From Methanothrix sp. (GTDB lineage Archaea; Halobacteriota; Methanosarcinia; Methanotrichales; Methanotrichaceae): a stretch of DNA of 44,424 bases. The stretch's first letter is position 1; each line of letters begins with the position of its first letter. Made by a program: the position numbers and the translations under genes. The notes under the pieces are model-generated. The model saw nothing but the letters and a program-made list of their open reading frames with translations. It ran no database searches and was not told the origin of the DNA. Of this stretch, positions 480 through 30,090 are shown one piece after another. The DNA lies in NCBI GenBank assembly GCA_040770465.1, contig JAXGJB010000020.1, positions 1 to 44,424 on the forward strand, written 5' to 3'.

Positions 480-480
480 G

Positions 481-12746: not shown

Positions 12747-14299
12747 GAGAAAAATCTCCTGATCTTTGAAGGAAGGTAGGATTTGAAGAGCCCGCGCTCA
12801 AATCCGTTTAGGCCGAACGACCACACCGATGCAAGGTATGCAAGGGTTATGAACACGAATGCGACTACAAGCTCCGCAAGAAGGGTTATGCCAGGCATGA
12901 AAGAAGCAAAGATTGTAGCTAAGATAAAGATAAGAATTGCAGCCAAGACTCCGGAGAGCATCGATCGGGTAAAAGTGTGAACTTCAATCCCCAAGATCTT
13001 TGCCGCATACCAGGGAGTGAAAAGAGCGTTCTTTATTGTGAGGACGATCGCTCCCGCAGCAGCGACGCCGTAGTATCCCCAACCGGTCAAAAGCGGCAGG
13101 GCAACGGCGAGGGAGATATTTCCGATGCCCATCACGAGGGTTAAAACTCCCGGCACTCGAATACGGTTATAGGCCACATTGATCGAGAAGAGGGGCAAAA
13201 CCGCAAGATTAACTGACAAATGAAAGATCAGGAGCAACATGAGGGGAGAGAGATTAGAGAACTCCTCGCCGACCCAGACGGTGAGGAGTTGTGGGGCAAA
13301 TCCGCAGATAACCCCGATAGGGAGGGCCATGGCAAGCCCCATAAGCTTGACGGCGCTCTTTGTGATCCGGATCAGGGAATCGGTCTGATCTCGGGCGTAG
13401 TAGGAAAGGATCGTCGGCGTCAGGACTCCTGAAAGCAGTCCCGCGACAGCCCGGAGGAGGATTACCCATTGGAGGGCGATGGCATACCTTCCCGCAGGAG
13501 TCGCGCCAAAGAGAAGATTGACGACGATTAGGTCGATCGATAGAAAGAGCAGGGCACCTATCTGGTTGACTGTAACCCACCACCCCATCCCGCAGAGATC
13601 TTTAACCCTTGTGCGATCGAAGGCGTGAATCGATATTCTGAGATGGGGGCAGATCTTCCTGGCAAGGACGACCGAAACCCCTGATGCCGCCATTGCTCCG
13701 ACAAGGTGAGCTCCGCCGATGAGGGCTAGGTCAGGGCCGAAGAGGGTGAAGGAGAGGACGATCAGGCCTGTCTGGACGACGAGGTTCGTGAGGTTTACGA
13801 GGTTCTGGAGGTCGAGTCGGTTATAGGCGAAGAGCTGGACGGCGAAGTTCGCAGCCCATGAGCGGATCAGAAAGGCGGCACAGACTCCGAGGAAGAGGAG
13901 GACCGCTCCAGTCTCCTGCTCGGCTGGTACGTGGAAGATTGAGGGGACAAACCAGGCAACGACGATTACTATCGGTACCATTAGGAGGATGACTGCAGAT
14001 AGGCCGAATAAGGCGGTGTTGAATGTGCGGTTCGCAGCTGTATAATCCTCTCTCTGGAGATCTACGGTGAGGAATCTGGAGACTGCGATATTTAGAGACT
14101 GGACGACGATCGCCACGTATCCAGTTATAGAGGTCGCCAGGGGGATGAGCCCGTAGGCCGCGACCCCGAGCTTGGATACGAAGTAAGGAACCAGGAGTAG
14201 TCCAATGACGACATTTGCTAAAAAGAAGATGATATTTGCCAGAAGGTTCCTAGGAAGTTGATCTGCAAAACTTCTGAAGCTGGCATTATTATCGGACAA
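12743..14299 (-). CDS. Wzx-like oligosaccharide flippase (MOP superfamily)
   Basis: 518 aa with roughly 12-14 TM segments. Motifs LG...YGL, D.IVV..L.G....G.Y. First gene of the minus-strand glycan operon. Confidence 0.88.
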   Translation of the reverse strand: MSDNNASFRSFADQLPRNLLANIIFFLANVVIGLLLVPYFVSKLGVAAYGLIPLATSITGYVAIVVQSLNIAVSRFLTVDLQREDYTAANRTFNTALFGLSAVILLMVPIVIVVAWFVPSIFHVPAEQETGAVLLFLGVCAAFLIRSWAANFAVQLFAYNRLDLQNLVNLTNLVVQTGLIVLSFTLFGPDLALIGGAHLVGAMAASGVSVVLARKICPHLRISIHAFDRTRVKDLCGMGWWVTVNQIGALLFLSIDLIVVNLLFGATPAGRYAIALQWVILLRAVAGLLSGVLTPTILSYYARDQTDSLIRITKSAVKLMGLAMALPIGVICGFAPQLLTVWVGEEFSNLSPLMLLLIFHLSVNLAVLPLFSINVAYNRIRVPGVLTLVMGIGNISLAVALPLLTGWGYYGVAAAGAIVLTIKNALFTPWYAAKILGIEVHTFTRSMLSGVLAAILIFILATIFASFMPGITLLAELVVAFVFITLAYLASVWSFGLNGFERGLFKSYLPSKIRRFFS

Positions 14300-14344
14300 T
14301 ATATTTCTCCATCATAATAATATGTATATCAATCTACGTGCGTC

Positions 14345-14390
14345 TAACCCGACCTGAAGGTCGGGGTTTTCGTGATCCGATGCCCTCTTA
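14345..14390. mobile_element. IS200/IS605-type end hairpin remnant
   Basis: aacccgacctgaaggtcggggtttt palindrome of the kind found at archaeal IS605 ends. A second hairpin cccgatccc-gaa-gggatcggg lies at 14488-14508. Confidence 0.55.
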
Positions 14391-14588
14391 AGTAAGAATA
14401 ACGCGCCATGGCCTCAAATACCGCGATATCGCTCCAACTTCCGCCCCCGGGCAACATCCTACGCGGTCTATCTATCCCCGCATACAACCCGATCCCGAAG
14501 GGATCGGGCGCACGCCCTCCGATTGGCCCCCAGAAGAATAGAATATTTTGAGAACTGTCACAGGGGCCGCAGACCGCCCCCCGAATGA

Positions 14589-15164
14589 CCACCCGCGCCT
14601 CCTATCATGGGATCAATTCGGCCCGGATGGCTCCGCCCCTCGGAAGGACGACCGCCCTCTCGATGGCAGTGGTTCTGCGCCACAGCTCAAATACGTTTCG
14701 ATCCGAGGGCGAGGGTGTACGGTCCCGATCCAGAAGCGAGGGTGTGGAGTCCTGATTCAAGCGCAAGGGTGTAAAGTTCAGATCCGAAGGTGAAGGAGCG
14801 GTCCTGATCCAAGCGCAAAGGTGTATAGTTCAGATCCGAGGGTGAAGGTGCGGAGTCCGCGCAAAGGTGTATAGTTAAGATCCGAGGGTGAAGGTGCGGA
14901 GTCCTGATCCAAGCGAGAGGTTGTATAGTCCCGATCGAAGCGCGAAGGTGTAATCCCGATCCAGGCGCCCGGGGTCCTCCAGGCGGCCGGGTCGGCTCCC
15001 CCGAGGGCGGCGGCGGAGGAAGGCGGCGGCCCCCGAATAAGACGGCCCCCCTTTTTGCGGAAGAGCGGTGGCCAGCTATCGGTTCCGCCTTCCCGAGGTC
15101 GAAAGAAGCGAGGCCGAGGCCGCCGGTCGGGATCGATGATAAAAAGAGCTTATACTCCAGCCAC
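14589..15164. repeat. Dispersed intergenic element, copy 1 (about ten 27-bp GATC-initiated units at 14700-14957)
   Basis: Aligns by eye with 19181-19664, 23021-23265, 25257-25523 and partly 16079-16235. Confidence 0.9.
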
Positions 15165-15896
15165 TCAGATGATCCCCTTCTCCTTCAGGGCCGTCTCGAT
15201 CCGCTCAAGCCGCATATCGATGTTGCCCTTCATGTCGGTCCGAAGCCCCCGGACCTCTCCCGTCGTCTCGTCCTGCTTGTCGAGCATCTGATCCTGCTTG
15301 TCGAGCATCTGATCCTGCTTGTCGAGCATCTGATCCTGCTTGTCGAGCATCTGATCCTGCTTGTCGAGCATCTGGTCCTGCTTATCGAGCATCCGGTCCA
15401 TCTTGGAATCGATCCCCTTGATCGCCATTATGGTCTCGTCCTGCTTGTCGATCATTATATCCTGCTTGTCGAGCATCTGATCCTGCTTGTCGAGCATCTG
15501 ATCCTGCTTGTCGAGCATCCGGTCCATCTTCTGCCCCAGATCGGAAAACCCGAACCTGGTGACGTCTATCAGCTCTTTGAGGAGCTCGGCGGACCTGTCG
15601 AGCCTCGCGTCCGTCTCCAGCTCATCGACGAGCTTTGAGAAGGCCTTGAACTCGCCGCTGGCATCTTGCCGCTCCACCTCGACATCGTATACGTCGATGA
15701 GGGCGTTTTTGACCTTAAGGGCGGAGGCGAACCGGTCCAGAGCCGCAGCATCTCCCTCGGCGACGACCTGCACCCTCCCGTCGGGGAGGTTTCCAACCCA
15801 CCCGGTGATCCCCATATCCCGGGCCAGGGCTATGACCTTGGACCTGTAGCCGACCTTCTGGACCCGCCCCGAGACTAAGATCACAAACCGCTCCAT
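15165..15896 (-). CDS. Acylphosphatase-domain/coiled-coil protein (type A head, 4+6 MLDKQDQ heptads)
   Basis: SGRVQKVGYR...GWVGNLPDGRV.V.AEG is the acylphosphatase signature with Arg and Asn retained. TATA-like cttatatc lies ~25 bp upstream and an oligo-T tract follows the stop. Confidence 0.88.
   Translation of the reverse strand: MERFVILVSGRVQKVGYRSKVIALARDMGITGWVGNLPDGRVQVVAEGDAAALDRFASALKVKNALIDVYDVEVERQDASGEFKAFSKLVDELETDARLDRSAELLKELIDVTRFGFSDLGQKMDRMLDKQDQMLDKQDQMLDKQDIMIDKQDETIMAIKGIDSKMDRMLDKQDQMLDKQDQMLDKQDQMLDKQDQMLDKQDQMLDKQDETTGEVRGLRTDMKGNIDMRLERIETALKEKGII
15271..15522 (-). repeat. 21-bp coding tandem repeats (6 units at 15271-15396, 4 units at 15439-15522)
   Basis: Unit tcctgcttgtcgagcatctga on the + strand, counted directly. 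Confidence 0.95.
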
Positions 15897-16235
15897 AGAT
15901 GGAGGTCTGGGGCTTATTTTGATATAAGTCTTCTCGTCCCCGGCAGGAGAAGGGGGAGGAGGTATCTTCTAGCGTCGGGTGACGTGCCGGGGAAGGTGGT
16001 GGCGGAGCAGACGGTTGGGAGTGAGAAGATTCGGGGAGAGGGGAGAAGGAGAGAGGGCCAGGGAGCGGGAGGCGGCCGGCCCGGCTCCCCCGAGGGCGGC
16101 GGCGGAGGAAGGCGGCGGCCCCCGTTTGCGGAAAGAGCGGTGGAAGCTATCGGTTCCGCCGTCCCGATGTCGAAAGGCGGTGAGCAGAGGCCGCCGGTCG
16201 AGATCGATTATAAAAAAGAGCCTATGCCCCAGCCC

Positions 16236-16318
16236 TCAGAGGATCCCCTTCTCCCTCAGGGCCGACAACACCCTCGCCGCGGTCCCGCCTCCATCCGGCG
16301 GGGGCGGACTGTCGAGGG
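16236..16318 (-). pseudogene. 3' remnant of a type A acylphosphatase-coiled-coil gene
   Basis: tcagaggatccccttctccctcagggccgac matches the 3' end of 23266..23892 (SALREKGIL*). Confidence 0.8.
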
Positions 16319-16399
16319 CGGAAAGGCCGGTGGCGGGATTGCTGGGGCGCCGCCATTCCCACCCCCATCACTCCCGACGCTCCCGATCAATCACCAGAA

Positions 16400-16407
16400 T
16401 TTATAAA
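16400..16407 (+). promoter_or_regulatory. Archaeal TATA box (repeated at 19827-19834 and 20988-20995)
   Basis: ccagaaTTTATAAAtcaa occurs three times. At 20988 it is ~29 bp upstream of the ATG at 21024. Confidence 0.7.
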
Positions 16408-16435
16408 TCAATGGAAAACCTCTCTTCTGGATGGG

Positions 16436-16590
16436 ATGATAGCCGCGAAGCCAGGATTAAGAGAGATAAAGTCCAAGACGTCGGATATCGGGCCCTACTC
16501 CTCGACCTCGCCCTGGAGCTGGGGATCGAGAGTTTACCGCCAAGGGCAAAATAAATGGTGGATAGGAGGTTGTATTCCGGCGGAAAAGGA
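16436..16590 (+). pseudogene. 5' remnant of a type C acylphosphatase gene
   Basis: Encodes KVQDVGYRALLLDLALELGIE, matching 21024..21350, with frameshifts and a stop. Confidence 0.8.
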
Positions 16591-16617
16591 AGATTCCATA
16601 AAGGAGGCGGTCTTTCT

Positions 16618-16815
16618 GTGAATAAGGCACAAAGCGAGTATGACCATATGACCCTGATCGAGAGACGCATCATCTATTTGTCTGGAGCGAGGTTGCGGGA
16701 GACGGACAAAAAGAGATCTGCTATGGAGAGGCAGGATGCGATCAGGAGAGGTCACCAGGCCACAGCAGGATGGGATAGCGTCTCACAGATCAGGAAGTGG
16801 CGCGAGGCTCGATGA
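16618..16815 (+). CDS. Putative antitoxin (VapB-like position)
   Basis: aaggagg RBS, GTG start, 65 aa, DSV..IR..R tail. ATGA overlap with the PIN gene. Confidence 0.7.
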   Translation: MNKAQSEYDHMTLIERRIIYLSGARLRETDKKRSAMERQDAIRRGHQATAGWDSVSQIRKWREAR

Positions 16816-17253
16816 ACGTACTTGACGCCTCGGTGATCCTGAAATGGTTTTTGGACGAGGAAGGGACTTCCCAGGCCCTCAGGCTCCGGGAGGAGTTCTA
16901 CAGATGAGAACGTGAGATAGTGGTTTCCGGATCTCCTGTTGATGGAGGTGGCCAATGCTTTGAAATATAATCCAAGCTTCACCGCCAAAGAGATCAAGGA
17001 AGCCATTCAGACGTTATTTGATATCGGAATCGTGATCATTACACCAACATATTCTCTTCTGGCAAAGGCCGTCGATCTGGCAAAGACCCTCGATGTAACC
17101 TGTTATGATGCCGTATATCTCGCTTTGGCGGAGGAGATTGGCTTTGAGTTCATCACGGCCGATAAGAAGTTCTGGAATAGTGTGGCTGAAAGAGAGGGGC
17201 CAACGCCATCGGTCATACTATTGACGGACCTTGATGAAGATTCCCCGAGATGA
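16812..17253 (+). pseudogene. vapC: VapC/PIN toxin pseudogene
   Basis: Same as 20244..20684 but with GGA>TGA at 16905-16907 and an extra T near 16925. Confidence 0.88.
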
Positions 17254-17457
17254 GTCGCATACTGCCCAACGTGACCATCGTCTCACTTTTTGACTGCCAT
17301 ACTGGCAGCAAGAGCAGAGAATATACAAAACCTAGGATATAAGACCGCCCCGATCCATCACTAAAATTGGAGCCATAAGACTGCCTTCCGATCCTGGACC
17401 GAAGTCACGAAGGACGGCTTGATCGCTGGGACAGAAGCTCAGTCGAGCATCAGCGAA

Positions 17458-17820
17458 TCAAATCGGCCTTCTCCTGTACCGCCCCAATTCCACGATCACT
17501 ATAGCCTTTGTCAACTTGCCTTTCTCGATAGAATTCAGGAAGTTCTTCAATTCTCGGTTCAGTTCCTTCGCCGTGAACATATTGGGGAACCTGAGAACTA
17601 TAGCCCCAGGATGATCGGGATACCTGAGCACCTCTCCAAAATCGGTGTCTCTTGTCACTATGATCCTCTTTGTTTTGATGGCATAATCGATGATATCCTG
17701 ATCCTTTGCTGCCCTCATACCAATATCTCTGACGTCCTCGATATCGTAACCCAGAGATCTGATCAACTCTCCCGTCGATCGGGGCATATCTGCGTCGAGG
17801 AGGAATTTTGGATCAGGCAT
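17458..17820 (-). CDS. DUF5615/VapC45-like PIN protein
   Basis: Motifs KFLLDADMP, D.DI..YA, IVTRDTDF. Lies downstream of DUF433. Confidence 0.85.
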   Translation of the reverse strand: MPDPKFLLDADMPRSTGELIRSLGYDIEDVRDIGMRAAKDQDIIDYAIKTKRIIVTRDTDFGEVLRYPDHPGAIVLRFPNMFTAKELNRELKNFLNSIEKGKLTKAIVIVELGRYRRRPI

Positions 17821-18034
17821 AGGCGCCGATCTCTTCCAAAGCTACGATCTTCGCCGCATATCCCAGGGAGGCCAGTATATCCTCCTTTTCTATATCGTAC
17901 TCGGACGCTATTTCTGCCGGGTCCATCCCACCGGCAAGAGCTCCCAGAATCAGATCTACGGGAACCCTGGTCCCTCTTATGATCGGCTTTCCGTGCCTCA
18001 CTTCGGGATCGATGACTATCCTATCTTCGAACAT
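17813..18034 (-). CDS. DUF433 antitoxin-like protein
   Basis: RIVIDPEVRHGKPIIRGTRVPV...EDI.A.L.YA. Confidence 0.9.
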   Translation of the reverse strand: MFEDRIVIDPEVRHGKPIIRGTRVPVDLILGALAGGMDPAEIASEYDIEKEDILASLGYAAKIVALEEIGAYA

Positions 18035-18220
18035 ATCCTACCTCACCGAATTGAAATCCGCAAAGCTTAATCCCTTCTTCTCTTCCATCCATACCTTATA
18101 ACGTATCTCTTCCAGATCTTCCAGCTCCTCTCTGCCGATGGCCAGAACTTCTCTGGACTTTTATAAAAGCGCCCATGCCAACCCATCCACCTCTCTCTTT
18201 TCCAAGATTAATATCTCCTG

Positions 18221-18466
18221 TCAAATGGTGAGCTCCACCTCGCCCGCGGGGATTGGCCTGGCCAGGAGCTTTCCCTGATGGAACTTCTTCATGATCACGT
18301 CAATCTTCCTTGATACCTCGGGGGTGAAATAGGCCTCGCCGCAATCATCACAGATATAGGCAGGGACTTCCTTGATGGAGATGATCTCACCCTCCACCTT
18401 GACCAAGAACTCCGTCTTGCCCTTGAGAAGCTTCCCACCGCAGAGGCTGCATTTATCTGGGATCAT
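18221..18466 (-). CDS. YgiT/MqsA-type zinc-finger protein
   Basis: CSLCGG...VPAYICDDCGEAYF. Probable start MIPDKC at 18466. Confidence 0.88.
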   Translation of the reverse strand: MIPDKCSLCGGKLLKGKTEFLVKVEGEIISIKEVPAYICDDCGEAYFTPEVSRKIDVIMKKFHQGKLLARPIPAGEVELTI

Positions 18467-18471
18467 ATTGA

Positions 18472-18786
18472 TCAGAGTCTTCTTTTCTTGTAATTTATCC
18501 ATTTTTCTTCGTCAGGCATATATATTGTGATTATTCTGGCGTGGTCTTCGCACTCTGCTACCACAAGATGAAATGGAATATGTTCCGAAAACCCTAAGAT
18601 CAAATGGGAGGGACGAGGGTGATCATCTGCATATTCTTCAATCACCTCTCCATCAACGACCATTTTCCGCATGTCCTCGGTTGATATATTCCTCTGAAAC
18701 ATCCTAGCTCTGGCGTGATTTGATATGAGGAACTGGTCCCGTTCAATTAAGGATCTTATGCAGGTCAGAGTAGAACTCATACTCAT
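18472..18786 (-). CDS. DUF4258 protein (putative RelE/BrnT-like toxin)
   Basis: SNHARARM..R.I...GEVIEEY.DD...LILG...HLVVA...IITIY.PD...W. Paired with the YgiT finger. Confidence 0.85.
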   Translation of the reverse strand: MSMSSTLTCIRSLIERDQFLISNHARARMFQRNISTEDMRKMVVDGEVIEEYADDHPRPSHLILGFSEHIPFHLVVAECEDHARIITIYMPDEEKWINYKKRRL

Positions 18787-19010
18787 ACAAGGTTCTTGAA
18801 GGGCTTTGTCGCTGGAGCTATCCCATCGGGCAGAGGATCTCCGTGCTCAAAGATCGATTCGATGAGATTTCGAGCCACGTCCTGAGCTATCTCGACGGTA
18901 TCGGATATCGTCCGTCCCTGGGCCACCAGTCCCTGCAGATCGTCGCTGGTCGCAAGATACATGCCCTCTTCCAACTTTTCAATCTTCAAAGAGACCAGAT
19001 ATTCAACCAA
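18783..19010 (-). CDS. HicB-like antitoxin
   Basis: IEKLEEG.YLATSDDLQGLVAQGRT..D..E.A. GAGGTGA RBS at 19017-19023. Confidence 0.8.
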   Translation of the reverse strand: MVEYLVSLKIEKLEEGMYLATSDDLQGLVAQGRTISDTVEIAQDVARNLIESIFEHGDPLPDGIAPATKPFKNLV

Positions 19011-19230
19011 CCCACGTCACCTCAACAGAGAAATGGAGCTATTACCTGATAAAGCTGATTATAGATCCCCGCTGAAAGCCCTTCGACCGACATCCTGACA
19101 TGCGAGGCGCAATACCGTCCAAGACTGACGAGGATAGAACATCTTGAACGTCGCAAGAATGGCAGAACATCTCTCGAATCCCACCCGCGCCTCCTATCAT
19201 GGGATCAATTCGGCCCGGATGGCTCCGCCC
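19011..19230 (-). promoter_or_regulatory. Duplicated 220-bp leader/promoter (second copy 22851-23070)
   Basis: Near-identical copies offset by 3840 bp, each with a TATA-like tataat and a GAGGTGA RBS pointing into a TA cassette. Confidence 0.75.
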
Positions 19231-19664
19231 CTCGGAAGGACGACCGCCCTCTCGATGGCAGTGGTTCTGGGCCACAACTCAAATACGTTTCGATCCAAAG
19301 GTGAAGGTGTATAGTCCTGATCGAAGCGCGAGGGTGTATAGTTCAGATCCAAAGGTGAAGGTGTGGAGTCCTGATCCAGGAGCGAAGGCGTAAAGTCCTG
19401 ATCCAGGCCCGAGGGCGTATTGTCCAGATACAGGCGAAGGTGTGCCGTCCTGATCGAAGCGCGAAGGTGTAATCCCGATCCAGCGCCCGGGGTTCTCCGG
19501 GCGTCCGGACCGGCTCCCACGAGGGCGGCGGCGGAGGAAGGCGGCGGCCCCCTTTTTGCGGAAGAGCGGTGGCCAGCTATCAGTTCTGCCGTCCCGAGGT
19601 CGACAAGAGGCAAGCAGAGGCCACCGGTCGGGATCGAATATAAAAAGAGCTTATACCCCAGCCC
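19181..19664. repeat. Dispersed intergenic element copy (seven ~27-bp units at 19292-19476)
   Basis: Aligned by eye with 14589-15164. The last unit gatcgaagcgcgaaggtgtaatccc is identical in both copies. Confidence 0.9.
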
Positions 19665-19745
19665 TCAGAGGATCCCCTTCTCCCTCAGGGCCGACATCAC
19701 CCTCGCCGCAGTCCCGCCTCCATCCGGCAGAGGCGGACGTCGAGG
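19665..19745 (-). pseudogene. 3' remnant of a type A acylphosphatase-coiled-coil gene
   Basis: Matches 23266-23345. Confidence 0.8.
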
Positions 19746-19863
19746 GCGGGTCGGCCGGTGGCTGGATTGCTGGGCGCCGCCATCCCCACCCCCATCACTC
19801 CCGACGCTCCCGATCAATCACCAGAATTTATAAATCAACGGAAAACCTCTCTTCTGAATGGGA

Positions 19864-20025
19864 TGATAGCCGCGAAGCGAGGATTTAAAGGAGAAAAGGT
19901 CCAAGACGTAGGATATCGGGTCTTCCTCCTCGACTTCGCTCCTTGCTGGGGATCGAGAGGTTTGCCGCCAAGAGCAAAATAAATGGTGGATCGGAGTTGG
20001 TATCCGTTACGGCGGAGGGGGAGAT
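19864..20025 (+). pseudogene. 5' remnant of a type C acylphosphatase gene
   Basis: Encodes GEKVQDVGYRVFLLD. DNA follows 21024-21185 and then diverges. Confidence 0.8.
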
Positions 20026-20049
20026 GTCATAAAAGGAGGCGGTCTTTCT

Positions 20050-20247
20050 GTGAATAAGGCACAAAGCGAGTATGACCATATGACCCTGATCGAAAGACGC
20101 ATCATCTATTTGTCTGGAGCGAGGTTGCGGGAGACGGATAAAAAAAGATCTGCTATGGATAAACAGGATGCGATCAGGAGAGGTCACCAGGCCACAGCAG
20201 GATGGGATAGCGTCTCGGAGATCAGGAAGTGGCGCGAGGCTCGATGA
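20050..20247 (+). CDS. Putative antitoxin (VapB-like position)
   Basis: aaggagg RBS, 65 aa, ATGA overlap with vapC. Confidence 0.7.
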   Translation: MNKAQSEYDHMTLIERRIIYLSGARLRETDKKRSAMDKQDAIRRGHQATAGWDSVSEIRKWREAR

Positions 20248-20684
20248 ACGTACTTGATGCCTCAGTGATCTTGAAATGGTTTTTGGACGAGGAAGGGACT
20301 TCCCAGGCTCTCAGGCTCCGGGAGGAGTTCTACAGAGGAGAACGTGAGATAGTGGTTCCGGATCTCCTGTTGATGGAGGTGGCCAATGCTTTGAGATATC
20401 ATCCAAGCTTCACCGCCAAAGAGATCAAGGAAGCCATTCAGACGTTATTTGATATCGGAATCGTGATCATTACACCAACATATTCTCTTCTGGCAAAGGC
20501 CGTCGATCTGGCAAAGATCCTCGATGTAACCTGTTATGATGCAGTATATCTCGCTTTGGCGGAGGAGATTGGCTTTGACTTCATCACAGCCGATAAGAAG
20601 TTCTGGAAGAGTGTGGCTGAAAGAAGGGGTCCAACGCCGTCGGTCATACTATTGACGGACCTTGATGAAGATTTAACGAGATGA
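20244..20684 (+). CDS. vapC: VapC/PIN toxin
   Basis: Motifs VLDASVILKW, EVANAL, YDAVYLALA, ITADKK. Confidence 0.92.
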   Translation: MNVLDASVILKWFLDEEGTSQALRLREEFYRGEREIVVPDLLLMEVANALRYHPSFTAKEIKEAIQTLFDIGIVIITPTYSLLAKAVDLAKILDVTCYDAVYLALAEEIGFDFITADKKFWKSVAERRGPTPSVILLTDLDEDLTR

Positions 20685-21023
20685 GCCGCATACTGCCCAA
20701 CGTGGCCATCGTCTCACTTTTTGACTGCCATACTGACAGCAAGAGCAGAGAATATCTCCGACTCCCAGCCGGAGATGCGGTGGGCCGGCGTGGCAACAGC
20801 GCGTTGGCGGCGTAGCGGGAGGAGAGGCGGCCGGACCGCCAGAGGCCGGGGGGCGCCGCCCGGTGCGCGGGCTTCGGGTGCCCGCCATCGTCATCTCCGC
20901 AAAAATCCGAGGCGTCCTGGGTCTCCATCCCACGACGTCCCCGCCGTCCCGTCCGCCCGCGCCCTGCGACCCGATCCATCTCCAGAATTTATAAATCAAC
21001 AGAAAATCCCTCTTCTGGATGAG

Positions 21024-21350
21024 ATGAAGCTCAAAGCCAGGATTACAGGAGAAAAGGTCCACGACGTCGGCTATCGGGTCTTCCTCCTCGACCTCGCCCT
21101 GGAGCTGGGGATCGAGAGGTTTGCCGCCTACAACAGAATCGACTGCGGATCGGAGGTTGTATCCGTCATGGCGGAGGGGGACGATGACCAGATCGCCGCG
21201 TTCCGAGAGTTGGTCGCGTCGATGAGGCCCGACGACGCCAGGGTATCCAATGTGACCATCGAAGACTACGACGGCAGGATCGTTTCCACGACGGACTATA
21301 GCCAGTCGCTCATGGTCCAGATCGTCAGCGATGGCCTCCTCAACCTCTAG
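21024..21350 (+). CDS. Type C acylphosphatase-domain protein lacking the coiled-coil tail (possibly truncated)
   Basis: MKLKARITGEKVHDVGYRVFLL...V.VMAEGD. TATA at 20988. Similarity to paralogs ends at MVQ (21320). Confidence 0.75.
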   Translation: MKLKARITGEKVHDVGYRVFLLDLALELGIERFAAYNRIDCGSEVVSVMAEGDDDQIAAFRELVASMRPDDARVSNVTIEDYDGRIVSTTDYSQSLMVQIVSDGLLNL

Positions 21351-21533
21351 CGGATCGAACGCTATAAGGCGACGATTGGCTGAAACCGAAGGCGAGCCCA
21401 TAGAAAATCTATTTTTTCTCACAGTACCGGCTCGTAACAGATCAGAGCCGATCTGCCATCAGAAAGGCTGGAAAAGGCGGAAGGGCTCCGACCAACATCC
21501 TCACATGGCAGAAGAGTCTACTATTGGTGAGAT

Positions 21534-22160
21534 ATGCAACGAGTCGAGATCATCGCTTCTGGACAGGTCCAGCGGGTCGGCTTCCGGGACCTGGTCGAAA
21601 CGATTGCCCAGGACCTAGGTCTCTCGGGGACGGTCGAGAACCAGAAGCCCTACGACGTCAGGATCGTGGCCGAAGGGGAGGAGGAGGCTCTGAAGGAATT
21701 CATAGCAGGCCTGAAGGTGGCGAGAGGGCCGATCCGGGTACGGGATCTGGAAGTCAGTTGGGAAAAGGCCACCGGCGAGTTCCCCTACTTCCAGATCCTG
21801 AGAGGAGATTGGCAGGAGGAGCTGGTGGAGCGTTTCGACGTATCGGCGTGGCTGCTTTACAGAAGCATAGAGATCGGCGAGGAGAACCTGGCGCTTGGCA
21901 GGGAGAACGTGGCCATAGGAAAGAAGATGCTGGAAAAGCAGGACACTACAATATCTATCCTCAAAAATATCAAAGAGGATACCTCCGAGATAGGAGCCAT
22001 AAAGGAAGAGGTCTCAGCTGCTCGATATGAGGCACGCCGCGAGAGGGAGGAGATCATATCTACCCTCAAGAGCGGCAGCCTGGAGGAGAAGTACGAGCAG
22101 CTCAGCCGGGAGATCGCTGAGATCAAGGCCGCCATCGCAGAGATTAAGGGCAATGGTTAG
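21534..22160 (+). CDS. Acylphosphatase-domain/coiled-coil protein (type B head, one heptad unit)
   Basis: SGQVQRVGFR...GTVEN...V.IVAEG followed by a helical tail. ggtga RBS. Confidence 0.88.
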   Translation: MQRVEIIASGQVQRVGFRDLVETIAQDLGLSGTVENQKPYDVRIVAEGEEEALKEFIAGLKVARGPIRVRDLEVSWEKATGEFPYFQILRGDWQEELVERFDVSAWLLYRSIEIGEENLALGRENVAIGKKMLEKQDTTISILKNIKEDTSEIGAIKEEVSAARYEARREREEIISTLKSGSLEEKYEQLSREIAEIKAAIAEIKGNG

Positions 22161-22311
22161 CTTGAGCTCGGCGGTCGGAGTCGGCGCCATCTTGGCGCGG
22201 GACTCATCAAGGGGTGATGGCGGGGATCATCTTGATTTTTTGCATCAATCAGAGATCCTCCGCTCGACGGGACCGGGAGCAAATATCCCCGGAACGCCGA
22301 ACAAACCGAGT

Positions 22312-22536
22312 TCAGGCCTCCGCCTCTTCCTCTATTTTTATAATGATCTCTTGAAGAGGCTTCGATCTTATCAGCTTTGAGGCATTGATGATCTCGATTC
22401 CTACCATCTCGCCCTTCTCGCCATGATCGATCAAGACGCCACGATCCACCTCGATGGTATCAACTATCTTGTTCTCCGAGAAGTTTAGATATAGAACATC
22501 ATATTTTGGATCATACGAAATCTTCATCAAGATCAT
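22312..22536 (-). CDS. DUF2283 protein (antitoxin-like)
   Basis: KISYDPKYDVLY...VLID....G..VGIEIINAS. Confidence 0.88.
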   Translation of the reverse strand: MILMKISYDPKYDVLYLNFSENKIVDTIEVDRGVLIDHGEKGEMVGIEIINASKLIRSKPLQEIIIKIEEEAEA

Positions 22537-22784
22537 CTCAAATATTTCTGAATTTTTGAGGTGCTATATGCGCTTATTACAACAATAGCATCTTTCTCAT
22601 CTTCATATATAACCCTTAACAACTTTCCACCCATCAGCTTCTGCGCGACTCTCCGCCTTTCGTCTTCAAAATCGAGATGGTCCGGATTTCCGATCGTCTC
22701 TTCGACAGCCTCTGGCGATATGCCCCTCTCTTTCAGACGATCCGACGCATGTTGGATGAAGATGATAGTTTTCATAGGAACCAT
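22533..22784 (-). CDS. DUF4258-like putative toxin
   Basis: HASDRLKERGIS...V...I.NPD...LLRVIYE...VVISAY. Confidence 0.8.
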   Translation of the reverse strand: MVPMKTIIFIQHASDRLKERGISPEAVEETIGNPDHLDFEDERRRVAQKLMGGKLLRVIYEDEKDAIVVISAYSTSKIQKYLR

Positions 22785-22860
22785 CGCGTTCGAAATGCTG
22801 CCGAGCCCGTGGGATCACCTGAGCGGCGGTCAAGGCTGGAAGTTGGTATACCCGCGTCAC
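22785..22860 (-). pseudogene. Possible HicA N-terminal remnant
   Basis: YQLPALTAAQVI...HFER directly after the GAGGTGA RBS resembles HicA starts (LP.LT..EVI). Confidence 0.35.
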
Positions 22861-23020
22861 CTCAACAGAGAAATGAAGCTATTACCTGATAAAGCTGATT
22901 ATATCTCTCCGCTGAAAGCCCTTGGACTGACATCCTGACATGCGAGGCGCAATACCGTCCACGACTGACGAGGATAGAACATCTTGAAAGTCGCAAGAAT
23001 GGCAGAAGATCTCTTGAATC

Positions 23021-23265
23021 CCACCCGCGCCTCCTATCATGGGATCAATTCGGCCCGGATGGCTCCGCCCAAGGGTGAGTGTGTAGAGTCCCGATCCAGG
23101 CGCTCAGGGCCCACTGGGCGGCCGGGCCGGCTCCCCCGAGGGCGGCGGCTCCCTTTTTGCGGAAGAGCGGTGACCTGCTATCTGTTCTGCCATCCCGTGG
23201 TCGAAAGGCGCGAGGCCGAGGCGGCCGATCGGGATCGAATATGAAAAGAGCTTTTACCCCAGCCC
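23021..23265. repeat. Dispersed intergenic element copy (internally deleted, one partial 27-bp unit)
   Basis: Same start (ccacccgcgcctcctatcat) and same type of end (aaagagct...ccccagccc) as the other copies. Confidence 0.85.
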
Positions 23266-23892
23266 TCAGAGGATCCCCTTCTCCCTCAGGGCCGACTTCA
23301 CATCGCTGAGGTCCGCCTCCATCCGGCTGAGGCGGACGTCGAGGCTCTCTTTCAGGTCGGTCCGAAGCCCCCGGACCTCTCCCGTAGCCTCGTCCTGCTT
23401 GTCGAGCATCTGGTCCTGCTTGTCGAGCATCCTGTCCATCTTGGAATCGATCCCCTTAATCGCCTCTATAGTCTCATCCTGCTTGTCGAGCATCTGATCT
23501 TGCTTGTCGAGCATCCTGTCCATCTTCTGCCCTAGATCGGAAAACCCGGACCTGATGACGTCTATCAGCTCTTTGAGGAGCTCGGCAGACCTGTCGAGCC
23601 TCGCGTCTGTCTCCCCCCTATCTACGTGCTTCGAGAAGTCGTAGAACTCGCCGGTTGCGATAGACCGCACCACCTCGACATCGGAGACGTCAATGAGGGC
23701 GTTCTTGACCTTCAGGGCGGAGGCGAACCTGTCCAGGGCCGCAGCATCTCCCTCGGCAACTACCTTCACCCTCCCGTCGGGGAGGTTTCCAACCCACCCG
23801 GTGATCCCCATCTCCTGGGCCATGGCTATGACCTTCGACCTGTAGCCGACCTTCTGGACCCTCCCCGAGACGGAGATCACAAACCGCTCCAT
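23266..23892 (-). CDS. Acylphosphatase-domain/coiled-coil protein (type A head, 2+2 heptads)
   Basis: Close paralog of 15165..15896. True start MERFV at 23892, with the same TATA-containing upstream region. Confidence 0.88.
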   Translation of the reverse strand: MERFVISVSGRVQKVGYRSKVIAMAQEMGITGWVGNLPDGRVKVVAEGDAAALDRFASALKVKNALIDVSDVEVVRSIATGEFYDFSKHVDRGETDARLDRSAELLKELIDVIRSGFSDLGQKMDRMLDKQDQMLDKQDETIEAIKGIDSKMDRMLDKQDQMLDKQDEATGEVRGLRTDLKESLDVRLSRMEADLSDVKSALREKGIL

Positions 23893-24188
23893 AGGAGGAG
23901 TTCTAGGTCTTATTTTGATATAAGTCTTCTCGTCCACGGCAGGATAAGGGGGAGGTGGCATCTTCAGGCGTCGGGTGACGCGCCGGGGAGGTGGCGCCAT
24001 ACCAAGCAGGTAGTGCATCTTGATGGGCAGGACGCGGGCCCAGGGGGGCGAGTCGAGAGCCCCCATGAAGATCGGCTCCTATCCCGAGCCGCAGTCACGG
24101 ATGACGGCTTGATCGCCGGGACAGAGCTCATGGGATGAAGTGCCCTCTCCAGAACTCTTATATTGATTCGGCGCCCCTTAGTATCTCA

Positions 24189-24455
24189 ATGAGCTCAATC
24201 GCCTCTGAAGAAGTGGATCCCATCATTCGCAGGTCCTTGCAGAGGGAGATCGGACTCTTGGAGATGAACAAAAAGCTAACAGATGACGAGATCACAGATT
24301 TTGAGCGTAAATACGGGATGGATTCAAACGAGTTTCTGAGGGCATATGAGCATGGTGAGCTCGGTGATGCTCAAGATTGCTTTGAATGGTGGGGATTGCT
24401 CAGAGGGCGGACTGCGATCGAAGATGAGCTGAAGAAGGCAAAAATGGTGTTATAA
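24189..24455 (+). CDS. Small antitoxin-like protein (FE.KYGMDS.EF...GELGD...EW; TumA-like)
   Basis: Motif recalled from small TA-associated proteins. No cognate toxin is evident next to it. Confidence 0.55.
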   Translation: MSSIASEEVDPIIRRSLQREIGLLEMNKKLTDDEITDFERKYGMDSNEFLRAYEHGELGDAQDCFEWWGLLRGRTAIEDELKKAKMVL

Positions 24456-24472
24456 AATGGGAGTGGTGTAGC

Positions 24473-24715
24473 ATGGGTGAGAGCGTTACGGTGGAGATTG
24501 ATAAAGCCACTTACCAGGAATTTGAACAGCTGGCGAGATCTCGAGGAACAAAGCTCGAAGAGACCCTGACTGAGGCCATACAAGCTTACCTCGAGCAGAA
24601 AAAAGCGTATATGAAGGATCCTTTCTTTCAAATAGGAAAAGCCGGTCGTTCGGGCCTAGGGGACCTTGCGGAAGCTCATGATGAGTATCTCTATGAATGT
24701 GATAATGAGGGATAA
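24473..24715 (+). CDS. Ribbon-helix-helix/CopG-type antitoxin
   Basis: VTVEID...L..LAR.RG....EAI..YL...DP...G..DLAEAHDEYLY. Lies upstream of a PIN gene. Confidence 0.8.
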   Translation: MGESVTVEIDKATYQEFEQLARSRGTKLEETLTEAIQAYLEQKKAYMKDPFFQIGKAGRSGLGDLAEAHDEYLYECDNEG

Positions 24716-24727
24716 TGAGGGATAATG
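24701..24727 (+). repeat. 10-bp tandem repeat (gataatgagg x2.7) across the antitoxin stop and toxin start
   Basis: Read directly from the sequence. Confidence 0.9.
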
Positions 24728-25138
24728 TCCAAAAGCATCTTCATCGATACAGGAGCTTTCTTGGCTCTTGAGGATGAATCGGATAACCATCACGAGGACG
24801 CTATTCGCTTTCGGGATAAAGTTCTTCTCCCAGGAAGCTACGAGTTCATCACCACATCCTATATTTTAGACGAAACGCTGCCGCTAATTCGGAGACGTTT
24901 GAGCATCTCTGCCTCTATCAGTCTCTCAAAGAAAATGAGAAATAGCCAGATTGTGAAGATTCTATGTATCTCCGAGGAAGTTGAGGAGAAAGCACTCGAT
25001 CTTTTTGAGAAATACGATGATAAGACCTTCAGTTTCACAGACTGCGTAAGCTTTGTGATAATGAGAGATTTAGGAATACAGGAAGCGTTTACGTTTGACG
25101 AGCATTTTTTACAGATGGGATTCATACGAAGACCCTAA
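24725..25138 (+). CDS. vapC: VapC/PIN toxin
   Basis: Motifs IFIDTGAFLAL, ILDET, SFTDCVSF, AFTFDEHF. Confidence 0.93.
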   Translation: MSKSIFIDTGAFLALEDESDNHHEDAIRFRDKVLLPGSYEFITTSYILDETLPLIRRRLSISASISLSKKMRNSQIVKILCISEEVEEKALDLFEKYDDKTFSFTDCVSFVIMRDLGIQEAFTFDEHFLQMGFIRRP

Positions 25139-25256
25139 TTCGTGAAACTTAAGCTATGATCTATATAAAACCCGAATAGCCGACAGGTTTCCTTTTGTAA
25201 GCTTTTCTATAAAAAATCTGTGTGATATCTCACCAGTTCTCTTGGACGCCCGAAAT

Positions 25257-25523
25257 CCTCGAAAGGACGACCGTCCTCTCGATTCCAGTGGTTCTGCGCC
25301 ACAGCTCAAATGCGTTTCGATCTGAGGGCGAGGGTGTACGGTCCTGATCCAGGAGCGAAGGCGCAAAGTCCCGATCCATGCGCCCAGGGTTCTCCGGGCG
25401 GCCGGGCTGGCTCCCCACGAGGGCGGCGCCCACCCCCCCGTTTGCGGAAGAGCGGTGGCCAGCTATCAGTTCTGCCGTCCCGAGGTCGACAGGTGCGAAG
25501 CAGAGGCTGCCGATCGGGATCGA
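25257..25523. repeat. Dispersed intergenic element copy (two 27-bp units at 25319-25372)
   Basis: Aligns with 14638-15136. Confidence 0.85.
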
Positions 25524-25950
25524 TTTCCAGGTCCAGCAGCTCAACAAGGGCATCCCCGCCATCTTGCGAATCCAAACGACCCAGGAAAAGATGCTCGATA
25601 AGCAGGACCAGATGCTCGATAAGCAGGACCAGATGCTCGATAAGCAGGACCAGATGCTCGATAAGCAGGACCAGATGCTCGATAAGCAGGACCAGATGCT
25701 CGATAAGCAGGACCAGATGCTCGATAAACAAGAGACTACAATATCTATTCTCAAAAATATCAAAGAGGACACCTCCGAGATAGGAGTCATAAAGGAAGAG
25801 GTCTCAGCTGCTCGATATGAGGCACGCCGCGAGAGGGCGGAGATCATATCTACTCTCAAGAGCGGCAGCCTGGAGGAGAAGTACGAGCAGCTCAGCCGGG
25901 AGATCGCCGAGATCAAAGCTGCAATCGCGGAGATTAAGAGCAATGGCTAA
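25522..25950 (+). pseudogene. Headless C-terminal half of an acylphosphatase-coiled-coil gene (7 heptads)
   Basis: DFQVQQLNKGIPAI...(MLDKQDQ)x6-MLDKQ followed by a tail nearly identical to that of 21534..22160. Six perfect 21-bp units at 25591-25716. The upstream frame is the repeat element. Confidence 0.8.
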
Positions 25951-26797
25951 GCTCGTTGGCGATAAGTCGGAATAGGTAGCTTCCGGTGAGACAGGCGTGA
26001 TAGCTCGACCCGCAGGCGATGAAGAAGACCCCAAACTCGGACCTCACCATCTCGGACTATCCTCTCGACTACAGCCATATCCTGGACGCAGGCTCTCTGG
26101 ATAGTCTCGGCCTGCTCTGTGATCTCCTTCAGCATGAAATGAAATAGTCGAAGCTCCCCGTCTTCGCCTCCTCTAGGTCCCATCATCCTATGGTGCTCAC
26201 CGGTCGGCTGACCTCGTCCAGATCGAGGTTGGAGAACTTGACGCCGTTCCTATCCGCCGCCACTAGGTCTCCGTTATCGAGGTAGACGCCGTCCTTGGTC
26301 CAGTCGAGGAAGGGCGCGACGTCGGAAGCAAAGAATGTTCCCCGATCTGATAGCCCAACCACCAGTGGCGAGTCCTTCCGGACGGCCACGATCTCCTCCT
26401 CGCTCTGGTGGACAGCTGGGATCGCAAAACTTCCCCTGAGCTCTTTGAATGCTTCGACGCAGGCATTCTCAAATGAGGACCCGTTCCAGGACGACGCAGT
26501 TCAGGACAACGTAGTATCCTGCATGGAGCCTATGCTGGAGAGATATGTCCTCGATGAGGTGAGCTATCACCTCAGAATCGGTGTCGCTTGAGAACCGATG
26601 CCACCTTTCAATCAGCCTCTTCCAGCCGGAGCCTCACTTCTATATCGTCGATCTTGCACACACCTTTTCTGATCTCAACCCGGTTCGAGACGGTTGCGAT
26701 CCCCATGGAATCCTGCCCCCGGTACTCGAGGTTCTTCGACCCTCGAGAGTATAGGCGAAGCCTTTTCGGACTCTATATATCCAAATATCCCGCACAT
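25947..26797 (-). pseudogene. glmS: Decayed, 3'-truncated glucosamine-fructose-6-phosphate aminotransferase
   Basis: MCGIFGYI start at 26797, with EYRG.DS.GIA, SPLVVG...FFASD, HFMLKEITEQ and IACGSSYHA in different frames. Confidence 0.88.
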
Positions 26798-26932
26798 TTC
26801 ATCCCTTCTCCAAGAAATCCCGGTGGGCTATTTATATGATCACTAATTTTTTCTTAGCTAGGAATCAGATTTTAGCCTTCCAGGCCTCCTATCATCGGTC
26901 ATCAAATCAGCGCTGGAGGCATCCAATTATGG

Positions 26933-27307
26933 CTAGAAGAACCTCCGCAGCGCCCAGTCGGGGACCCTGGCGTACTTCTGAACAATTTTGACGAAAAGCT
27001 CTTCCTGCTGGTGGCGATCCATGCCGTAGACATCATCTATTTCGTATTTTTTCATATCAAGAGCCATCAGCCGGATCTGGGCCTGGGCCAGCTTGAAATC
27101 CTCCTTCAAAGAGGTGATGATGTTTACGTAAAAACCGACGCTTCTCGGCTTCTCTGAAGAGAGGTTCTTTACGAGACCGCATTCGGTGCAGAATGGATGG
27201 GGTTTGAGGCCGCATTCGCGCCCCTCATAATAATGGGTCATCCAGACCTTCTCTTTGGTCCCGCAGCTTACGTGATCACATTGACCTGTCAGGAAAATCC
27301 CTCCCAA
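26933..27307 (-). CDS. Hypothetical protein with Cys/His motif
   Basis: 124-aa ORF with KPHPFCTECG. Start uncertain. Confidence 0.65.
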   Translation of the reverse strand: MGGIFLTGQCDHVSCGTKEKVWMTHYYEGRECGLKPHPFCTECGLVKNLSSEKPRSVGFYVNIITSLKEDFKLAQAQIRLMALDMKKYEIDDVYGMDRHQQEELFVKIVQKYARVPDWALRRFF

Positions 27308-27616
27308 ATCAGTCGACCTATTTCTAACAGATATTGACTCTGAAGTAGAATGGCCAATGATATTTAAAATGATCGATCTTTTAAAGAAAAAAACATTAGG
27401 AAAATATGATTTATGATAAAAGCAAAGTGATATTGAATTAGAACATCACTAGCAAAAGATAGCATGGGACTGAAGACATATTTATATAAATATCAATAAG
27501 AATTAATAACCGATAATACTTGCCGACTGGGTTAGGGTCGGCATAGTAGATAAGGACTCCGGCCTTTGAGCAGATTACAGAACTCGGACGGCCTCTCCCT
27601 CCCTCCTGAAGCCTGA

Positions 27617-29422: not shown

Positions 29423-30090
29423 CGCCCCAGCCAGCCAAGAAATTTCGGGGCCTTTCTTCGTATACGGCCGTGATTTTGCGCCCCCAACTTTTGGAGGGAC
29501 TCGGCTGCAACAGATCGACAGCGGGACGACTCATCATCCAATGCTCGGACGAGATGATCCGCAGCTTTCGGGTCTCCGATCTCGCCGAGAGCCCAGAGAG
29601 CACCAACCCGGACAGTTGGATCCTCATCATCAAGAATGACCTTTATCAGCGAATCTGTCGCCCTGGGGTCCCCAATCTCGCCGAGGGCCTGAGCCGCGGC
29701 GGACCTGACCCGCCAGCTCTTGTCATCCAGAGCCTGGATGAGGGGGCTTGTAGCCCTTAGATCGCCCGCGCTCCCAAGACCCCAGGCAGCACACCTTCGA
29801 ACGCTTGGATCCTCGTCCAACAGAGCTTCGACGATGAAATCTACGGCCCTTTCGTCTCCATTCTCTCCGAGGTCCCAGGCGGCTTTCGACCGCACTCTGG
29901 GATCCTCATCCTTGAGAGCATCGATCAGAATCTCAATCAGGATTGGGCTGTCTGCACGTCCGAGAAGACTTCTCCTGTTGTTGGGATCTGGATATTTATC
30001 CTCTCTAATCCAAGCCTCTCCACTTTCGCCCATAACCATAGTTCCTATTGATTGAAGCTTCAAGTAATTTACCCCGTAAGCAGTCTTCAC
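29419..30090 (-). CDS. HEAT (PBS lyase-like) repeat protein
   Basis: About five L.DED..VR..AA.ALG..GD repeats. Start uncertain. Confidence 0.88.
   Translation of the reverse strand: MKTAYGVNYLKLQSIGTMVMGESGEAWIREDKYPDPNNRRSLLGRADSPILIEILIDALKDEDPRVRSKAAWDLGENGDERAVDFIVEALLDEDPSVRRCAAWGLGSAGDLRATSPLIQALDDKSWRVRSAAAQALGEIGDPRATDSLIKVILDDEDPTVRVGALWALGEIGDPKAADHLVRALDDESSRCRSVAAESLQKLGAQNHGRIRRKAPKFLGWLGR

Follow-up and report, generated by a model that had tools for sequence, protein, structure and literature searches.

A probable flexible genomic island of acylphosphatase-like paralogues and toxin-antitoxin modules at the edge of a Methanothrix glycan cluster

Introduction

Flexible genomic islands beside the glycan clusters of aquatic bacteria and Haloquadratum are, in the available parts of two papers (PMC4033161, PMC4535781), variable in content and fixed in site, and hold small cassettes, toxin-antitoxin (TA) genes and mobile-element debris; homologous recombination has been proposed to shape them. 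They share these features with the locus described here, an array of paralogous genes and TA modules located at about 14.5–26 kb of a 44,424-nucleotide stretch of DNA, hereafter the window, which is the entire contig C20 (JAXGJB010000020.1) of a draft Methanothrix sp. genome (GCA_040770465.1; 2.54 Mb in 66 contigs, 94.9% complete). Unlike those islands, the array is dominated by one lineage-specific paralogue family together with its repeated 3' flank, and no tRNA gene or integrase marks its site.

Integrons and clusters of attC sites lacking integrases (CALINs) offer a second term of comparison. In both, as in the window, short direct repeats bound small cassettes of variable content, often TA genes, and the integrase may be absent locally. 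According to the consulted text of PMC9668308, most archaeal integrons are integrase-less clusters in which TA genes are frequent cargo; in the supplement examined, the sole Methanotrichaceae entry, whose count of 2 we read as attC sites, belongs to a metagenome-assembled genome (MAG) from a different genus (Fen-7).

With respect to the proteins, canonical acylphosphatases (PF00708; 3br8, 8jfs, 1ulr) share with the window family the head fold, the phosphate-loop Arg and the catalytic Asn, but they are single domains of ~90 aa, to which the window family adds a helix of ~150 residues. One table line in the paper on Borg elements (PMC9879509) gives a PF00708 acylphosphatase protein with the 7-residue tandem repeat KLVEGQN. 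Like the family studied here, this protein joins an archaeal acylphosphatase head to heptad repeats derived from DNA tandem repeats; its repeat sequence and its host (Methanoperedens elements) are different. Apart from that line, the consulted portions of the literature, including PMC8195603 and PMC4158269, hold nothing on the family or the locus. The statement of an earlier note, made from the window's sequence, that this is not a described system is therefore fair for the gene family, whereas the type of locus fits known flexible genomic islands.

We consider that the region is probably a flexible, that is, strain- and species-variable, genomic island lying at the edge of a glycan cluster in a genome of the Methanocrinis/Methanothrix harundinacea group, shaped by general recombination and slippage and carrying TA modules as passengers. 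Its pieces have been shuffled, duplicated, inverted, truncated and decayed, and their order differs between sister species and between metagenomes. The evidence fits neither a new integron-like system nor a new defence system. Methanothrix and its relatives are major acetate-using methane producers of digesters and wetlands whose variable genome has been little studied, and the locus provides a worked example of an island built and reshuffled without a visible recombinase.

Paralogues and Their Repeated 3' Flank

One family, combining an acylphosphatase head with a heptad-repeat helix, is represented between 14.5 and 26 kb by three complete genes, two halves and four remnants, a count already given in the earlier note and borne out here by Pfam, BLAST and tblastn taken together. 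The complete copies are A1 (15165–15896, minus strand, 243 aa; PF00708 E = 5.8e-21; a 21-bp repeat present 11.9 times according to Tandem Repeats Finder, TRF), A2 (23266–23892, minus strand, type A, 208 aa from its MERF start, in an open reading frame (ORF) open to 24066; E = 2.5e-19) and C (21534–22160, plus strand, type C, 208 aa; E = 5.8e-20). One half copy is a type-B gene reduced to its head, which with its promoter occupies 20970–21350 on the plus strand (gene at ~21021–21350, ~109 aa; ORF 20721–21350, E = 7.2e-8). The other half copy (25582–25950, plus strand) is a tail only, inverted relative to A1 (inverted repeats I1–I5); it carries seven near-perfect MLDKQDQ heptads (98% matches in TRF) and a C-type C-terminus, and its protein is 65% identical to the tail of C by tblastn. 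BLAST identified two type-A 3' end remnants on the minus strand, at 16236–16333 (the last ~27 codons, including a frameshifted stretch) and 19665–19761. Two type-B 5' remnants lie on the plus strand at 16448–16575 and 19876–20023, each within a longer segment that includes the type-B promoter region (16345–16575, BLAST and repeat scan, families D14 and D16–D18; 19772–20023, repeat scan and tblastn). The TATA-like box TTTATAAAT stands in these promoter regions at 16400 and 19827, and type-A and type-B genes each have TATA-like boxes of their own.

Silent-cassette gene conversion loci such as Neisseria pilE/pilS and Borrelia vls likewise hold, in a single locus, full genes beside promoter-less partial copies of one family. 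Unlike what is found there, the window proteins have no signal peptide as judged by eye, and the partial copies are frameshifted and debris-like.

Five diverged copies (62–95% identity) of one intergenic segment separate the genes. In its complete form, this segment follows the type-A stop codon with a T5 tract ~20 nt downstream, a conserved stretch of ~100 nt closing in A5G5, a GC-rich part, 27-bp repeats and a leader. All copies read on the minus strand, and we label them flanks X1 to X5; some sequencing runs share these names and are always written here as "run X1" and so forth. Flanks X1 (14535–15164: leader 14535–14699, 27-bp repeats 14700–14968, GC-rich 14954–15046, T-tract 15047–15164) and X2 (19010–19664: leader 19010–19290, 27-bp repeats 19292–19486, GC-rich 19472–19547, T-tract 19548–19664) are full. 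Flank X3 (22850–23265) has a leader at 22850–23070, the GC-rich part and the T-tract region without 27-bp repeats; flank X4 (25208–25524) is truncated, with a short leader, 2–3 27-bp units, the GC-rich part and the T-tract region; and flank X5 (16043–16235) retains only the GC-rich and T-tract parts. The recurring minus-strand grammar of the earlier note, from a type-A gene end through the repeats and leader to TA cargo, is thus complete in two of five copies by alignment and partial in the other three, and co-oriented TA cargo follows only flanks X2 and X3, flank X1 running into a flippase gene.

When 14.0–26.5 kb was compared by BLAST with the whole 2.54-Mb genome, every repeat copy fell within 14.5–25.6 kb of contig C20, with matches far above chance (E from 1e-25 down to 0). 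These include a duplication of 1264 bp at 92% identity (16071–17324 and 19500–20755) and the shared leader at 95% identity (19010–19230 and 22850–23070). A dispersed element resembling a miniature inverted-repeat transposable element was rejected, as no flank copies occur elsewhere in the genome.

The repeated segment is the 3' flank of type-A genes and was probably carried with them in segmental duplications. Of 8 aligned flank copies, 7 adjoin the 3' end of a type-A gene, whether whole or reduced to a remnant, and the sister-species matches listed for the T+G part of the flank all run to query position 684–691, past the stop and into the coding end of A. The type-A remnants represent gene tails in decay that extend to different lengths, and the flanks also vary in where their far ends break. 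A sharp, att-like end of the type-A remnant was considered and rejected, since what lies upstream is A coding sequence that has diverged, and the far end has several breakpoints. Similarly, the "J" element (23987–24129) was rejected as a recurrent site because it has just two copies in the genome.

The 27-bp units are arranged head to tail without spacers, are degenerate (61–70% matches) and vary from 20 to 27 nt. A clustered regularly interspaced short palindromic repeat (CRISPR) array was rejected for them, the units being non-identical and unique spacers being absent. Their presence in only 2 of the 105 genomes of the order, the window genome and the sister species G025, marks them as a local oddity rather than part of a general system. 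The flank was also rejected as coding sequence: it has no conserved reading frame, none being kept in flank X1 because the 27-bp units vary in length, and the 52-aa ORF of the leader shows 7 residue changes between two copies with 95% DNA identity. Structured RNA was rejected for the flank as well: none of 25 predicted pairs showed a compensatory change among 13 copies (consensus energy -8.5 kcal/mol), and single-strand folds of the 27-mer array were no better than shuffles on either strand (z of -0.22 and +0.85).

Rearrangement among Sister Species and in Metagenomes

The T+G part recurs several times in each of three species of the same genus (G025, G022 and G024). Comparison of the locus across strains and MAGs, as the earlier note had suggested, finds the same cassettes on short contigs of these species in a different order and orientation, with cargo proteins mostly 86–100% identical. 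For example, HicB is followed by DUF4258/DUF2283 in a sister species and by DUF4258/YgiT in the window. On G025:C10 the flippase again forms the left border, with leader and T+G repeat parts coming after it as in the window, and on G022:C31 the right border consists of homologues of window 25970–29938; these shared borders place the island at one chromosomal site. The radical-SAM/exchanger/SMC synteny is kept in G025 and in the complete genome G023, and everything to the left of the radical-SAM gene differs. G023 and G026 have one A-type gene each, elsewhere or beside the radical-SAM gene.

Comparable islands occur in the Methanothrix genomes G034 and G074, in which 122 of 156 candidate ORFs were annotated. 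They hold family genes together with HicAB, AF2212/PIN, UPF0175, IS200/IS605 and IS110 transposase, truncated integrase and glycosyltransferase genes, as well as duplicated fragments of a UDP-GlcNAc 2-epimerase gene. In one G034 locus (L123, G034:C1:750001–762000), two N-terminal epimerase fragments (1–492 and 5758–6249) are 98.8% identical and enclose TA and other cassettes, and a C-terminal fragment lies further on (9874–10104). Fragments of this gene between TA cassettes indicate that leaving fragments behind is a property of the islands and not of the acylphosphatase-like genes alone. The same locus carries, at 1489–2106, 4038–4551, 5031–5301, 8538–8954 and 10821–11122, a 156-bp tandem repeat containing a palindrome (CACAAAG three times, then CTTTGTG three times); it lies between small genes, upstream of several of them, and its sequence has no relation to that of the 27-bp repeats in the window.

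Population evidence comes from Logan contigs of four public runs placed on 14.0–26.5 kb, in which stretches without cover in runs X4, X5 and X16 were not counted as evidence. Runs of other studies contain joints at which two flank copies are fused in register (16166>19612, 15122>19624 and 23070>14644), a joint (19106>21530) that reproduces the arrangement of the sister species, and altered copy numbers in both kinds of tandem repeat (a skip of 127 in the 27-bp repeats and of 84 in the 21-bp repeats). Together with the reordering among sister species and a vapC pseudogene, these joints bear out the view of the earlier note that the repeats let units duplicate, swap and decay. RNA-library contigs of run X16 fall on A1, A2, vapB, DUF433 and RHH/PIN, which is compatible with transcription of those genes without proving it.

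In run X1 every one of the 30 bins is covered and 118 of 157 pieces reach at least 99% identity; none of the contigs listed for it spans the stretch. In this run, the depth of contigs on the first of two vapBC units (16502–17335) is ~9, against 37–62 beside it and ~70 on the second unit (19838–20671); in run X5 the relation is reversed, with 22–26 on the first and 1.5–3 on the second. Such opposite depths, noted among runs X1, X4 and X5, imply that strains differ in the units they carry, and the exact order in the window may be partly a strain chimera. Carried further, this line of thought would make the contig a string of alternative alleles from co-existing strains, in which some duplicates, such as the two vapBC units, never shared one genome; the opposed depths, the want of a spanning contig among those listed and the 66-contig draft would all agree with it. 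We hold it to be unlikely. Arrays with several copies of the same parts stand on single contigs in the assemblies of three other species, run X1 covers the stretch at high identity, and the repeat copies differ by 5–38%, too much for identical repeats that were collapsed or wrongly joined. Even if the order were partly chimeric, the polymorphism itself would support a recombining island.

The flexible island would be composed of two kinds of parts: small TA modules of type II, and paralogues of three or more old types (A, B and C) from a lineage-specific family with an acylphosphatase head and a helix of ~150 residues built of MLDKQDQ heptads in varying number. The agent of change would be general recombination, both homologous and illegitimate, between diverged repeats of 100–1260 bp, with unequal crossing-over between direct repeat copies, replication slippage in the 21-bp and 27-bp tandem repeats, and no involvement of a dedicated recombinase. 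TA modules would then pile up as selfish, loss-resisting passengers, and the family members would be residents of the island with a possibly conflict-related role.

Evidence for and against a Dedicated Recombination Site

Recombinase and transposase genes gave no Pfam match in window ORFs of at least 120 aa, and contig C20 has no Phage_integrase match, in agreement with the earlier note; the whole genome yields three such matches, all weak or incomplete, one on C48 that contains a stop and the others on C51 and C24 (below cut-off). An IntI gene, sought beside the array as the mark of an integron, was not found there. An inverted-repeat scan (arms of at least 12 nt, gap of at most 120) yielded 13 pairs, none of which recurs at junctions and among which no attC-like hairpin was found, an attC covariance-model scan being no part of this search. 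Unlike the co-oriented, mostly promoter-less cassettes of integrons and CALINs, the genes lie on both strands with their own TATA-like boxes, and the repeat, ~330 bp long and uneven at its ends, is the 3' flank of a gene. Given these differences, the heterogeneous breakpoints and the restriction of the 27-bp repeats to two genomes, the integron-like nature ascribed to the locus in the earlier note finds no support.

Several observations nevertheless weigh against the flexible island as we describe it. First, several cassette blocks are 85–97% identical in nucleotide sequence to those of sister species, compared with 77–87% for the core SMC-ScpAB genes, so that vertical descent with local shuffling is insufficient, and either exchange between species, at which the excess identity hints, or mis-binning of short contigs is needed. 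On G025:C10, the contig that holds a core-like flippase (82%), the flank parts are only 81–82% identical, and the short contigs of G025 could be mis-binned. Second, a type-A remnant with the same frameshifted stretch occurs at least 10 times in four species, which a site-specific process could produce. Third, the recombination joints all come from short-read metagenome contigs and could have their source in related strains or species. Finally, the roughly four-fold enrichment of the family near TA toxin genes could reflect a functional tie that goes beyond common residence in islands.

The first two of these points would also be expected of a dedicated cassette platform, in which a unit of ~330 bp, consisting of the type-A 3' end with the T-tract and GC-rich flank, serves as the recombination site through which a recombinase encoded elsewhere moves units of 1–3.6 kb, much as attC does in an integrase-less cluster or as target-gene ends are repeated by tandem integrative elements. 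Five direct flank copies do bound units of ~1.1, 3.4, 3.6 and 2.3 kb (repeat families D3, D6 and D12), the same truncated remnant stands beside different neighbours in four species, and TA genes are common integron cargo in the consulted text of PMC9668308. The platform nonetheless appears very unlikely to us, as the contig has no integrase and the genome only the three weak or partial matches, the short inverted-repeat pairs do not recur at junctions (with the limit on attC given above), cassettes lie on both strands under their own promoters, unit ends break variably with the remnant fading into diverged A sequence, and all copies are local. A wider proposal is that methanogens have a cassette platform that is independent of recombinases or served in trans, in which the A 3' end and flank would be the crossover site for moving 1–3.6 kb units between species, the family proteins would be conflict components with stalks tuned by heptad slippage, and the partial copies would act as conversion donors; we regard it as quite unlikely.

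The Head-Plus-Stalk Family

The family itself is the most interesting by-product of this analysis. In the AlphaFold2 model of A1 (pLDDT 88.8), residues 1–90 form an acylphosphatase head and residues 92–239 a single helix. Compared by Foldseek with solved acylphosphatases, the head reaches a TM-score of 0.91–0.94 on the target, with a root-mean-square deviation of 1.3–1.6 Å and 37–45% identity, and the top matches are all acylphosphatases; the model thus predicts the beta-alpha-beta-beta-alpha-beta acylphosphatase fold over ~90 residues. Among 26 aligned members, G10, V12, G16 and R18 are invariant, and Q13, Y17, N36 and D39 are kept in at least 90%. The residues kept include the Arg of the phosphate-binding loop and the catalytic Asn of acylphosphatases. 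The predicted A1 homodimer scored 0.28 against a mark of 0.42, a result that counts neither for nor against a dimer.

Identification of these proteins with the housekeeping acylphosphatase equivalog was rejected: family members score 70 bits or less in NCBIfam against equivalog cut-offs of 86–131 (the best being 70 against a cut-off of 100), they carry the additional helix of 150 residues, they number 1–17 matches per genome, and a separate, canonical 90-aa acylphosphatase gene is found on contig C4 of the same genome.

The stalk varies greatly in length. In the best 120 homologues (P0001–P0120), 61 lengths equal 5 modulo 7 and the heptad count ranges from 1 to 12. Quantization of length by 7 residues means that the stalk grows and shrinks by whole heptads, and its hypervariability would result from slippage of the 21-bp repeat.

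A protein search retrieved 2587 proteins at E <= 0.001 among 5863 candidates; wherever a source names one of the matches listed, the name is "acylphosphatase", except for one "hypothetical protein". Family matches are present in all 105 genomes of the order, mostly more than one per genome. Named records elsewhere belong to Methanospirillum, Methanoculleus, Methanocalculus, Methanoregulaceae and some Nitrosopumilaceae MAGs, and the ESM Atlas, which has no entry for the window protein, returned only archaeal "acylphosphatase" clusters for the homologue P0003. The loci L070, L077, L081, L083, L085, L086, L089 and L092 hold relatives at 35–57% identity, several per genome, in long-read MAGs of 2.7–3.2 Mb labelled Nitrosopumilaceae, an unexpected range for an otherwise methanogen family. 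In a viral collection of 2.9 million contigs, searches found 0 relatives by single protein and 1 by alignment. A large archaeal family annotated just as "acylphosphatase" thus deserves attention as one that really consists of a head and a hypervariable stalk and is enriched near TA genes.

Toxin-Antitoxin Modules and Their Link to the Family

The alternation of family copies with TA modules claimed in the earlier note is confirmed, with caveats: the TA families named there were found by Pfam and NCBIfam, but some of the partners were called by position and one toxin gene is broken. In the first vapBC copy (16555–17253, plus strand), which contains a truncated PIN domain (16939–17253), vapC is a pseudogene that, set against the second copy (20050–20684, plus strand), shows an in-frame TGA and an insertion of 1 nt; the PIN gene of the second copy is intact (20229–20684, 151 aa; Pfam E = 4.3e-15). 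On the minus strand lie a DUF5615 (PIN-like)/DUF433 pair (17458–18034; Pfam E = 4e-23 and 1.7e-22), a pair of DUF4258 and an MqsA-like, YgiT-type zinc finger (18221–18786; Pfam, and TIGR03831 of NCBIfam at E = 4.5e-14), a weak HicB-like orphan antitoxin (18783–19010; HicB_lk_antitox at E = 0.006 and DUF1902 at E = 0.002, neither reaching the cut-off) and a DUF2283/DUF4258 pair (22312–22784; Pfam E = 1.4e-17 and 1.7e-10). A TumA-like orphan antitoxin (24135–24455, E = 2.6e-7, under the curated cut-off), a ribbon-helix-helix (RHH)-like gene called by position only (24473–24715) and a PIN toxin found by Pfam (24725–25138) follow on the plus strand, in a block (24135–25138) that is 91% identical over 1391 bp to G025:C38. 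PIN, DUF5615 and both DUF4258 matches, with the partners DUF433, YgiT and DUF2283, exceed Pfam cut-offs, whereas neither of the "vapB" genes nor the "RHH" gene matches a family in Pfam or NCBIfam, all three being called from their position. Start and stop codons overlap or abut within the pairs. Being two small adjoining genes of which one comes from a known toxin family, these pairs can be classed, from their sequences, as putative type II TA modules.

Proximity between family and TA genes was evaluated in five genomes, complete or nearly so, from six-frame matches to PIN, HepT, ParE and DUF4258; 5 short stand-alone acylphosphatase matches and 5 PIN matches in frames of 605–611 aa were excluded, matches within 700 bp were merged, and expected values and p were derived from 5000 cluster-preserving shifts. 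A toxin match lies within 2 kb of 5 of 30 family loci (0.83 expected, p = 0.002), within 5 kb of 8 (2.0 expected, p about 0.001) and within 10 kb of 9 (3.7 expected, p = 0.02). The remaining 22 loci have none within 5 kb, among them all three of the complete same-genus genome G023, and G099 has a tandem of five family genes near which only a HepT fragment lies. The link between family and TA genes is thus statistical, about four-fold over chance within 5 kb, and not obligate, so the TA association proposed in the earlier note stands as a tendency only. Pfam annotation of ORFs within 2.5 kb of seven further loci found TA-type genes at three and an adjoining YdjM gene at three, and no fixed partner gene was seen in those seven. 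Genes for YdjM-family membrane proteins lie beside or near family genes in several Methanothrix loci (L043, L044, L059 and L121:5028–5528), and YdjM is a possible recurrent neighbour.

These data bear on the proposal that the family proteins are working TA partners or components of defence or abortive infection, the array being a functional multi-gene conflict system. The enrichment within 5 and 2 kb, the recurrence of islands with family and TA genes in a second genus, and the hypervariable heptad number among close homologues, which would be expected under diversifying pressure, speak in its favour. Set against it are the majority of loci without a toxin gene nearby, the G099 tandem, the lack of a fixed partner and of any PADLOC model matching the family, the single relative in the viral collection, and the spacing of family genes at 0.2–0.6 kb from TA genes, with promoters and T-tracts of their own. 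Accordingly, we give such a system little credence, and the designation of the array as a defence or stress locus finds no footing in a link that is statistical. If the family does act in conflict or signalling, it would be an untouched target; if it has no such role, the result would still caution against calling repeat-bounded TA arrays new "systems".

Genomic Setting and Neighbouring Genes

The best named relatives of the window proteins belong to Methanothrix harundinacea and Candidatus Methanocrinis. By Pfam, positions 1–14.3 kb form a surface-glycan cluster with glycosyltransferases, a deacetylase, a pyruvyl transferase and a flippase, the array lies to its right, and beyond the array follow NosD/beta-helix, HEAT-repeat, further family member, radical-SAM/SPASM, Na/Ca exchanger and SMC-ScpAB genes. 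The G+C content is 31–43% in the first 11 kb and 47–67% in the rest of the window. The low-G+C genes (1–11000) encode Alg14/Alg13-like, GT2, polysaccharide deacetylase, GNAT and DUF2206 membrane proteins; abutting glycan genes of normal G+C, this block has the look of a glycosylation island that was replaced or imported. A polysaccharide flippase gene (12743–14299, minus strand; Pfam Polysacc_synt) comes last in the glycan cluster and constitutes the left border of the flexible island.

Scans of the whole window returned 0 Rfam matches at gathering level and 0 tRNA or tmRNA genes. Between the flippase stop and the leader of flank X1 (14340–14520), there are two perfect short hairpins, the first being CCCGACC...GGTCGGG followed by a T run and the second CCCGATCCC...GGGATCGGG.

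The further family member outside the array (30517–31068, minus strand) adjoins the conserved radical-SAM gene and has a type-B-like head with a C-like tail; in G026, an A1-like gene occupies the matching site beside the radical-SAM/SPASM gene. Directly to the right of the array, two abutting, Pfam-negative short ORFs of 79 and 68 aa (25947–26389, minus strand) look, by eye, like pieces of a broken larger gene.

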